In this document: piece after piece, positions 10,954 through 11,910 of the stretch | Numbering within the stretch: the first letter of the stretch is position 1 | Layout: every line of letters starts with the position of its first letter | DNA from: a virus | Reading direction: 5' to 3' (one strand) | UHGV virus genome: UHGV-0229026 | DNA: 14,698 bases | The notes under the pieces: generated by a model | The model's database searches: none | The model's input: the letters and a program-made list of their open reading frames with translations, nothing else | Told to the model about the DNA's origin: nothing | Translations under genes and position numbers: made by a program

Positions 10954-11910
10954 ATGAATATGGTCGATTTATTTCGCGCCATGCTGCCACCTGTCAGTTA
11001 TGACCTGAACGGGAAATATATTTCCGCAGAACTGACAGCCGAGGCTGACGTCATGGAAGTCGTGAAGGCGTCAGCGGCGCGCGTTCTGACACAAATCACC
11101 CCGTTGCAGGCATCGATGACGCTGTCCGACTGGGAGCGCGTGTACGGTGTTATTCCTCGTGAAGGGGCAACACAACAGGAGCGGCGTCAGAACATTCTGG
11201 TAAAAATGGCTGCCACGGGGGGGCTGTCAATCCCTTACTTCAAAAGCCTTGCCGCCAGTCTGGGCTACACCATCACCATTACGGAGCCGCGACCATTCCG
11301 GGTGGGGATAAACCGCTGCGGCGACCGCCTGCTGATACCAGAAATCCGCTGGGCGTGGCAGGTCAATGTTATCGGGACAAAAACACCTGTCTACCGGTTC
11401 AGAACGGGCGCATCGGCAACCGGCGAACCGCTGACGGCCTTTGGTGAATCCATTTTAGAAAACACGTTTAAAGACCTTAAACCGGCTTTTACAGACTGTT
11501 ATTTCACTTATGAAATCACATCTCAGCCAGAGCCAGTATCACCACTGACAATTAACAGAATTCAGTTTCAGTCAGTATGTCATGCTGATGCGCCTCTGCT
11601 GATAAATAATGCCGGAATGCATTTTGCAGTTATTCCTGTACTGAAAGGTAAACCGCTCACAATCAACAATACGCAGCTTCAGGCGGGAAACCTGAGTCAG
11701 GAACCATTGCTGATTAACAGAATGCAACTATTGTCGGAGCGGCGAACTATTGAACCACTGACAGTTAATACCGTTCAGTGGCAGTCGGGAAGGCAGACCA
11801 CGGAGCCGATGACAATTAACAAAATACATTTACAAACAGCAAATAACAGCAGTACCCCATTAGTAGTTAACCATAATGGGCTGCACTTTGCCGTTATCAC
11901 AGAGCCTTAA
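10954..11910 (+). CDS. Baseplate/tail protein, P2 gpI-like (Mu gp48-like), with a C-terminal tandem-repeat extension
   Basis: Start chosen at ATG 10954 (GAGGGG SD 8 nt upstream, just after the upstream stop at 10949) rather than the longest-ORF ATG at 10918, which overlaps the previous gene. 319 aa; the last ~125 aa are seven tandem ~17-aa units encoded by lower-G+C DNA. Confidence 0.65.
   Translation: MNMVDLFRAMLPPVSYDLNGKYISAELTAEADVMEVVKASAARVLTQITPLQASMTLSDWERVYGVIPREGATQQERRQNILVKMAATGGLSIPYFKSLAASLGYTITITEPRPFRVGINRCGDRLLIPEIRWAWQVNVIGTKTPVYRFRTGASATGEPLTAFGESILENTFKDLKPAFTDCYFTYEITSQPEPVSPLTINRIQFQSVCHADAPLLINNAGMHFAVIPVLKGKPLTINNTQLQAGNLSQEPLLINRMQLLSERRTIEPLTVNTVQWQSGRQTTEPMTINKIHLQTANNSSTPLVVNHNGLHFAVITEP
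11539..11907 (+). repeat. Intragenic tandem repeat: seven ~51-bp units encoding a PL(T/L)(I/V)N..Q.Q motif
   Basis: Read directly from the translation: SPLTINRIQFQSVCHADA / PLLINNAGMHFAVIPVLKGK / PLTINNTQLQAGNLSQE / PLLINRMQLLSERRTIE / PLTVNTVQWQSGRQTTE / PMTINKIHLQTANNSST / PLVVNHNGLHFAVITEP. DNA units begin with ccactgaca / ccgctcaca / ccattgctg / ccactgaca / ccgatgaca / ccattagta. Confidence 0.8.

Follow-up and report, generated by a model that had tools for sequence, protein, structure and literature searches.

Why should a baseplate wedge protein end in a string of short repeats? The question is raised by the gp48 gene in a stretch of 14,698 nucleotides (nt) from UHGV virus genome UHGV-0229026, here called the window, whose gene content and Pfam matches identify it as the tail half of a Mu-like prophage of E. 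coli. In Mu gp48 and about 98% of its homologues the chain stops a few residues past the last strand, at 180-200 amino acids (aa), whereas the window protein goes on for another 131 residues. We find that the repeats in this extension, together referred to as the module, are portable among different carrier proteins, and that across the loci fetched for this study the module is strictly linked to a second gene, encoding a protein of 351 aa, p351. Judging from sequence patterns, the chances are about even that the module is a docking handle and p351 a detachable adhesin, which would act as a second receptor-binding protein for the baseplate. Just short of even is the chance that module and p351 together form a receptor-binding system of two pieces, not described before, in which a detachable adhesin sits on a repeat handle and which may be plugged onto the end of a fibre shaft or onto Gp48 in Escherichia and Shigella prophages.

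The module comprises residues 197-318 (11542-11907) and is built of seven units in frame: type A (PLxINxxQxQ followed by a 7-residue loop) occurs five times and type B (PLxxNxxGxHFAVI) twice, at positions 2 and 7. The parts of the locus on which the argument turns are the following.

10954-11910, plus strand: gp48::module gene, an open reading frame (ORF) of 318 aa plus stop, identical in 7 complete E. coli genomes and found in 562 blocks of the assembly collection
10954-11514, plus strand: Mu Gp48/YmfQ wedge domain, aa 1-187 (PF10076; phrog_203; PDB 9ki1; 99% identity to the 190-aa YmfQ of E. coli C5)
11514-11944, plus strand: insertion of ~430 nt relative to module-less relatives (DNA alignment with E. 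coli C5; 31 E. coli genomes matching nt 1-560 only)
11515-11541, plus strand: linker ITSQPEPVS (from the translation), 9 residues, joining the wedge domain to the module
11542-11592, plus strand: unit 1, type A, PLTINRIQFQSVCHADA
11593-11652, plus strand: unit 2, type B, 20 aa, PLLINNAGMHFAVIPVLKGK
11653-11703, plus strand: unit 3, type A, PLTINNTQLQAGNLSQE, which opens the 4A+B core common to tail fibres
11704-11754, plus strand: unit 4, type A, PLLINRMQLLSERRTIE
11755-11805, plus strand: unit 5, type A, PLTVNTVQWQSGRQTTE
11806-11856, plus strand: unit 6, type A, PMTINKIHLQTANNSST
11857-11907, plus strand: unit 7, type B, the terminal cap, PLVVNHNGLHFAVITEP
13350-14405, plus strand: p351, 351 aa, TTG start, obligate genomic partner of the module (phrog_8291, function unknown; conserved TTG and ribosome-binding site; 46/46 informative loci)

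Homology to p351 or to the module served to retrieve loci from viral, genome and metagenome collections, and each locus was scanned with a hidden Markov model of the module. Every locus that includes sequence upstream of p351 has the module (46 of 46, over 24 distinct carrier ORFs); in the three loci that lack it the contig begins inside p351. The gap between the stop codon of the module and the TTG of p351 is 26-40 nt in all carriers except the prophage family of the window, in which a fibre gene and a tail fibre assembly gene (tfa) lie between the two and the gap is 1416-1495 nt (1446 nt in the window). Likewise, module type X and p351 are contiguous in 55 of 61 matching E. coli genomes, the remainder being truncations or the window type. 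In L044-type prophages p351 belongs to the tail operon, with gp48::module before it and the fibre gene after it, and a single genome, such as RIVM_C036569, can have co-resident prophages with two different carrier-plus-p351 pairs. Allelic positions are occupied differently. At L015 the allelic fibre has a covalent distal region of ~360 aa, with a 188-aa DUF4376 protein, in place of the module (~95 aa) and p351 (387 aa), and in E. coli C5 a complete second fibre with DUF4376 occupies the place of p351. No other chaperone gene is found 3' of the module-tipped fibres. The coupling to the gene at 13350-14405 is the key fact that an earlier note on this DNA, made from the letters of the window, had missed.

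Where else does the module occur? An exhaustive HMMER search with the extension against 1.84 billion representative proteins returns eight matches, seven of which have the module at their C-terminus; the eighth, P0128, is a weak multi-repeat match. Besides the window protein, the Gp48 carriers are P0121 (also seen at the L044 loci), the L071 type and P0123, the last with an Ig-like spacer. P0122, P0124 and P0125 are side tail fibres with phage_tail_N plus Phage_fiber_2 domains, and P0126 has a P2-gpH-like N-terminus. The earlier note expected an extension peculiar to one lineage; instead, the module ends at least four Gp48 lineages, with wedge domains that share 27-36% identity, and tail-fibre proteins of three types. 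In all 24 distinct carrier ORFs it is C-terminal. Its core consensus is four 'PLxINxxQLQSGxxxxE' units and then a 'PLxxNHxGxHFAVV' cap. The fibre modules consist of these four A units and the B cap, and three of the four Gp48 lineages have an extra A-B pair in front. Viral-contig relatives of fibre P0124 have aa 1-303 in common and diverge beyond, and the module is thus an exchangeable distal end in fibres.

The wedge domains of L044 and L071 are 27% identical and their units 1-2 differ, yet from unit 3 on, and in p351, the two are 99-100% identical. This pattern points to a recombination breakpoint within the module, near 'VPALTGK', and the exchanged cassette appears to be the 4A+B core together with p351. 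At loci L031 and L064 p351 is preceded by a chimeric ORF of 202 aa (P0129), apparently what is left of a rearranged prophage, in which a non-fibre N-terminus, MACLLNKSDMASSIGISVQAFDKWGV..., has been fused to the final ~140 aa of fibre P0124 with its module. A gene for the module alone was also weighed and dismissed, because the short entries P0127 and P0130 start at methionines internal to full-length carriers; where the length of their contig is recorded, it is short. A word-indexed protein search with the extension alone gave no match, even to a relative of 92% identity (P0001) that is in the collection and that a full-length query recovers; the negatives of this tool with short repetitive queries are unreliable, and we give that result no weight. 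A profile search of the same collection adds only two fragments.

The partner, p351, is a member of phrog_8291, its sole PHROG match, and is named 'hypothetical protein' in every source; searches of Pfam and PDB gave no match, with noise only in the PDB profile search. We found no literature on the p351 accessions, on phrog_8291, or on YmfQ in connection with the baseplate. Homologues are found in Escherichia and Shigella only, and among complete E. coli genomes p351 is present in 58 of 5426 (~1%), at 105 places and often in several copies. Serine, threonine, glycine and asparagine account for 39% of its residues, and it has neither signal features nor a hydrophobic segment long enough to span a membrane. 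Caudo_TAP (PF02413) and DUF4376 signals are absent from p351; the Caudo_TAP member is its neighbour at 12739-13293. Every homologue, in four clusters and down to 50% identity, has a conserved TTG 7-10 nt past a strong ribosome-binding site (window 13350, L044 6001, L066 6001, L076 178, L014 9249). Therefore the window p351 is taken to start at 13350 and not at the upstream GTG at 13305.

Conservation of p351 is uneven along its length. The window protein is 50% identical to the ORF directly 3' of the module-tipped fibre in L014, and identity is higher in aa 1-240 than from aa 241 to the end in each comparison (96% vs 73% for L066, 68% vs 49% for L076, 55% vs 44% for L014). Variability in the C-terminal third shows no relation to module type. 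Between carriers with modules of only 36-48% identity, aa 1-240 of p351 are 95-99% identical. Given that near-identical p351 stands beside anciently diverged modules, the juxtaposition has been maintained or re-created and not merely inherited, and the pattern fits exchange by recombination.

How firm is the repeat array itself? The pattern P[LM][TLV][IV]N has seven matches, at aa 197, 214, 234, 251, 268, 285 and 302 (spacings 17, 20, 17, 17, 17, 17), and no other in the six-frame translation of the window. Self-similarity at lag 17 scores 79 against -27 +/- 10 in 2000 shuffles, about 10 standard deviations away; the shuffle maximum is 29 and none of the 2000 reaches 79. At the DNA level five in-register copies with a 51-nt period are 62-74% identical, and Tandem Repeats Finder at a score of at least 30 reports no repeat because the copies are too diverged. 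The seven-unit array proposed in the earlier note is thus borne out, as is the HFAVI-type ending that it saw in units 2 and 7, both of which have xNxxGxHFAVI. Its hand count of about 42% G+C in 11521-11580 also agrees with our computed 0.417; the gp48 domain has 0.538 and the module 0.442.

The module is a genuine coding sequence under purifying selection. Across 11512-11956 the gp48 frame alone is open and the other five frames are stop-rich. Between units, synonymous sites are saturated (proportion of differing synonymous sites, pS, 0.67), whereas the corresponding nonsynonymous value, pN, is 0.38, and the codons for PLTIN differ between units, being CCACTGACAATTAAC in one and CCGCTCACAATCAAC in another. 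Synonymous saturation with a lower pN indicates that the duplication is old and that the peptide motif has been maintained. The relative P0001 (locus L003; 318 aa, 92% protein identity) retains the seven units, and a one-codon insertion leaves its frame intact. The ratio of nonsynonymous to synonymous substitution (dN/dS) relative to P0001 is 0.33 for the module, compared with 0.13 for the wedge domain. With units this ancient and a dN/dS of 0.33, the description 'rapidly evolving' in the earlier note does not hold.

The NCBI Prokaryotic Genome Annotation Pipeline (PGAP) treats the gene otherwise. In RIVM_C036569 and B7A it calls gp48::module a 'YmfQ family protein, incomplete, missing C-terminus', that is, a pseudogene. 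The annotated features are L001 6001-6564, the first 564 nt, and L080 8018-8602, and the module of ~390 nt is left unannotated in two different prophage types. This marking may explain why gp48 carriers are scarce among the named protein entries returned by searches. Regardless of mechanism, ~390 nt of selected coding sequence lie unannotated in each of the two records, and the error may recur in other carriers.

The N-terminal part of the protein is a bona fide wedge subunit. The gp48 ORF extends over 10918-11910, and its likely start is the ATG at 10954, 4 nt past the gp47 stop, which gives 318 aa. Residues 1-187 belong to the same family as Mu gp48 and YmfQ and the gene has the same place, between gp47/Baseplate_J and a fibre gene, in the order gp46 - gp47 - gp48 - tail fibre. 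Pfam PF10076 (Phage_Mu_Gp48) matches aa 9-187 with 104.6 bits against a cut-off of 37.4, as the earlier note had supposed when it called this part an ordinary Mu gp48-type protein. The protein also matches phrog_203, baseplate wedge subunit (E 2.9e-68), and Mu gp48 in PDB 9ki1 chain a (E 1.9e-7, residues 23-186 of the query aligned to 28-175 of 180). The alternative label of that note, 'gpI-like', is valid for functional position only, since no P2 gpI-type profile matches and a Pfam scan at E<=0.01 gives PF10076 alone. The wedge domain is complete to the C-terminus normal for the family. With 318 aa in place of a single domain of ~180-200 aa, the protein is an extended variant of the PF10076 family, and 117 of the 120 best Gp48 homologues measure 179-212 aa; repeats of this kind are therefore not a general property of these homologues. 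Two further proteins of the family deserve mention. P0045 (Limnobaculum xujianqingii, 462 aa) is a Gp48 homologue with an unrelated, non-repetitive C-terminal extension of ~270 aa, which tells us that C-terminal elaboration of Gp48 arises in other ways too. P0002, from a European Nucleotide Archive (ENA) contig, is a variant of 261 aa whose wedge domain lacks 57 internal residues (aa 80-136) and whose module is intact; it is either an assembly artefact or a defective copy.

How did the module reach this gene? The gp48 domain of E. coli C5 is 99% identical to that of the window, ends ...CYFTYEVEE* at 190 aa, and has its stop overlapped by the fibre ATG; in 31 more E. coli genomes the match is confined to nt 1-560 of the gene. 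Relative to C5, the ~430 extra nt (11514-11944) lie between a common TATGA and the common ribosome-binding site and ATG of the fibre gene. An insertion beside a gp48 domain of 99% identity, accompanied by a drop in G+C, indicates that the module was acquired, which is what the earlier note had suggested from composition. The identical gene is present in the RIVM_C036569 chromosome and in six other complete E. coli genome records, and the exact 318-aa protein is listed in the 562 blocks given above. In six prophage copies that we examined (L004-L009) the same prophage end adjoins different chromosomal genes, among them nitrate-reductase-like, RNB-domain exoribonuclease, RND-type efflux, proline dehydrogenase/PutA-type and dtpB genes. 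An identical gene at differing chromosomal sites indicates a transposable Mu-like phage that was recently active. One of these copies, L009 (CP050211.1, a 6.4-Mb record), is a degraded prophage truncated on both sides, with p351 cut after ~46 aa and transposase, resolvase and Tn3-type genes nearby.

The remainder of the window has the expected tail genes in series, namely sheath, tube, tape measure, the DNA-circularisation protein gp43, gp44, gp45, gp46, gp47 and gp48; 3' of gp48 come a tail fibre of 267 aa, a Caudo_TAP fibre-assembly protein and the terminal p351 ORF. The neighbours of the gp48 and p351 genes are as follows.

9870-10949, plus strand: gp47/Baseplate_J wedge protein, directly 5' of gp48 (Pfam PF04865, E 2.2e-67)
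11957-12760, plus strand: primary tail fibre, 267 aa (PF03406; phrog_1833)
12739-13293, plus strand: tail fibre assembly protein (PF02413 Caudo_TAP; phrog_136; the PGAP-annotated start corresponds to 12775)

p351 is the final gene before the prophage end, window positions 14406-14698 lying beyond it. The window lacks gin, mom and an invertible G segment. The distal host-range region 11400-14698, with module, fibre, tfa and p351, has a G+C of 0.44-0.50, compared with 0.567 for 1-10953.

A question remains, what might the pair do? In phage Mu each wedge holds one gp46, two gp47 and one gp48, and the N-terminus of the trimeric fibre docks on a loop of gp48 (PMC11915804). In T2 and T6 the gp38 adhesin binds the fibre tip by its N-terminal domain and has conserved anchor and variable specificity parts (PMC3157838). 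The conserved aa 1-240 and variable C-terminal third of p351 give the same pattern of an anchor domain plus a specificity domain. We infer binding, the division into handle and adhesin, and an effect on host range as follows. p351 would attach non-covalently to the module through its conserved N-terminal two-thirds, and the more variable C-terminal third would face the host surface. In tail fibres the handle would lie at the distal end of the shaft, and in the window prophage recombination would have grafted it to the Gp48 C-terminus. An ordinary fibre (11957-12760) and, via the handle, a second receptor-binding protein would then be mounted on each of the six wedges, with p351 on its handle replacing the complete second side fibre of close relatives. 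A fibre-docking or host-range role had been put forward in the earlier note, and it is in this direction that the sequence evidence points.

Phages are well known to have receptor-binding parts and adaptors that are modular and exchangeable; the novelty here lies in this repeat handle, its obligate partner p351 and the fusion to the Gp48 wedge protein. The resemblance to the gp38 of T2, T6 and S16-type phages lies in a separate gene that follows the presumed attachment-bearing gene, in a partner with conserved N-terminal and variable C-terminal parts, and in a pair that is interchangeable as a host-range unit. In the other carrier types p351 lies directly 3' of the gene with the module, as would be expected of a gp38-type system, whereas in the window fibre and tfa intervene. 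The two nevertheless share no sequence similarity, p351 is larger and has no glycine-rich motifs, and the putative handle is a 17-aa repeat array that is found on a wedge protein as well as on fibres. Fibre chaperones (Mu gp50/U, lambda Tfa, P2 gpG; Caudo_TAP PF02413; DUF4376) are likewise encoded right after the fibre C-terminal region and exchanged together with it, yet p351 belongs to none of these families and is twice their size, and the window already has a Caudo_TAP gene for its primary fibre. T4 gp7, an enlarged Gp48/gpI-type wedge protein, has more than 1000 aa in globular domains and acts as a scaffold for peripheral baseplate proteins. The idea common to both cases is that added C-terminal mass on a wedge protein of this class would be an attachment platform for further receptor-binding components; the T4 extension has no sequence relationship to the module, which is a short repeat array. 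The tail-spike adaptors of K1-5/SP6, G7C and CBA120 belong to branched systems of multiple receptor-binding proteins on different tail types. There a small docking element mounts an extra or alternative receptor-binding protein on the tail, as the module may do here, but the sequences are unrelated, and in the window the proposed adaptor forms part of a conserved wedge protein of a myophage.

Several observations weigh against the handle-and-adhesin reading. A fibre tip linked to the next gene is also the tip-plus-chaperone layout; module and p351 are 1.4 kb apart in the window; and, given that Gp48 would, as in Mu, be a monomer in each wedge whereas fibres are trimers, the module would need to work in both oligomeric contexts. 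No similarity of p351 to a known adhesin, fibre or chaperone was detected. AlphaFold2 predictions are unusable, both for the module (8 sequences; a short strand at each unit; predicted local distance difference test score, pLDDT, 49), which the earlier note suggested might form a beta-solenoid-like adhesin, and for p351 (single sequence; pLDDT 36). Most loci were retrieved via p351 and many are near-identical prophages, so that the independent evidence amounts to about six carrier types and four p351 clusters and not to 46 cases. Finally, a tblastn search with two module variants and p351 against 50,697 sequenced phage genomes gave no match, which leaves no propagated phage that demonstrates the function. 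Searches with the module elsewhere are equally silent, with no match in Pfam or PHROG beyond the gp48 domain, be it to a known fibre or solenoid repeat family or to any other, and noise only in the PDB profile search (E 0.4). The B unit resembles the final hairpin of the Ig-like repeats in the Bacteroidetes CHU_C protein P0128 (E 1.5e-4); homology to these repeats was rejected, the resemblance being one of a short 'PLVVxxxGxYxAT' hairpin motif.

Could the module instead be the receptor-binding or distal tip domain itself, with p351 as its dedicated assembly chaperone, in the role of Tfa or DUF4376 and attached afterwards or not? A C-terminal tip with a partner gene 26-40 nt 3' is the classic fibre-chaperone layout, the module-tipped fibres have no other chaperone gene 3', a conserved weak TTG start suits a low-abundance factor, and the module alone is not confidently folded by AlphaFold2. 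We nevertheless regard this arrangement, the main rival of the docking model, as unlikely, about half as probable as that model. At 350-387 aa p351 is about twice as large as known fibre chaperones and has no signal of their families; a module of 90 aa whose motif is strongly conserved is poorly suited to determine specificity; and, unlike in the tip-binding parts of chaperones, no co-variation with module type is seen in the variable C-terminal third of p351. Moreover, what module and p351 together replace in the allelic fibre is a covalent tip of ~360 aa, about the size of p351. Synteny alone cannot separate the docking model from the chaperone model.

Nor does the pair have to interact at all. 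The module might be a structural spacer or shaft repeat, and p351 an unrelated passenger in the same cassette, for instance a lysogeny-associated accessory gene; that p351 is last before the prophage end in the window and lacks known domains, and that G+C is lower throughout the distal region, would suit such hitch-hiking. It is made distinctly improbable by p351 copies of 95-99% identity beside modules of 36-48%, which are not simply co-inherited, by the position of the L044-type p351 within the tail operon, and by the lack of transmembrane or signal features. Least of all do we credit a decaying pseudogene or an accidental read-through fusion with a functionless extension, as PGAP implies. 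Its flag in RIVM_C036569 and B7A and the contig variant P0002, with its internal gp48-domain deletion, speak for this explanation. Against it stand the 131-codon extension, open in the gp48 frame only and under purifying selection, a wedge domain that is complete, a fusion conserved in four Gp48 lineages of 27-36% identity, and the presence of the exact protein in 562 blocks, with six copies beside different chromosomal genes. With the same single open frame and selection, the extension is not a frameshift or sequencing error that fused two ORFs, a possibility that the earlier note had raised. The pseudogene explanation is very improbable and already largely refuted.

If the handle-and-adhesin reading is true, a structural wedge protein becomes the mount for a second receptor-binding protein, and the myophage baseplate would gain a second receptor specificity by means of a handle of ~100 residues on Gp48, without a whole extra fibre. 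Module and p351 would then be a compact, portable attachment pair, with the same handle on at least six carrier types, that might be reused to re-target phages or tailocins. The prophages concerned recur among matches from enterotoxigenic E. coli (e.g. B7A, ETEC6) and O166:H15 strains.

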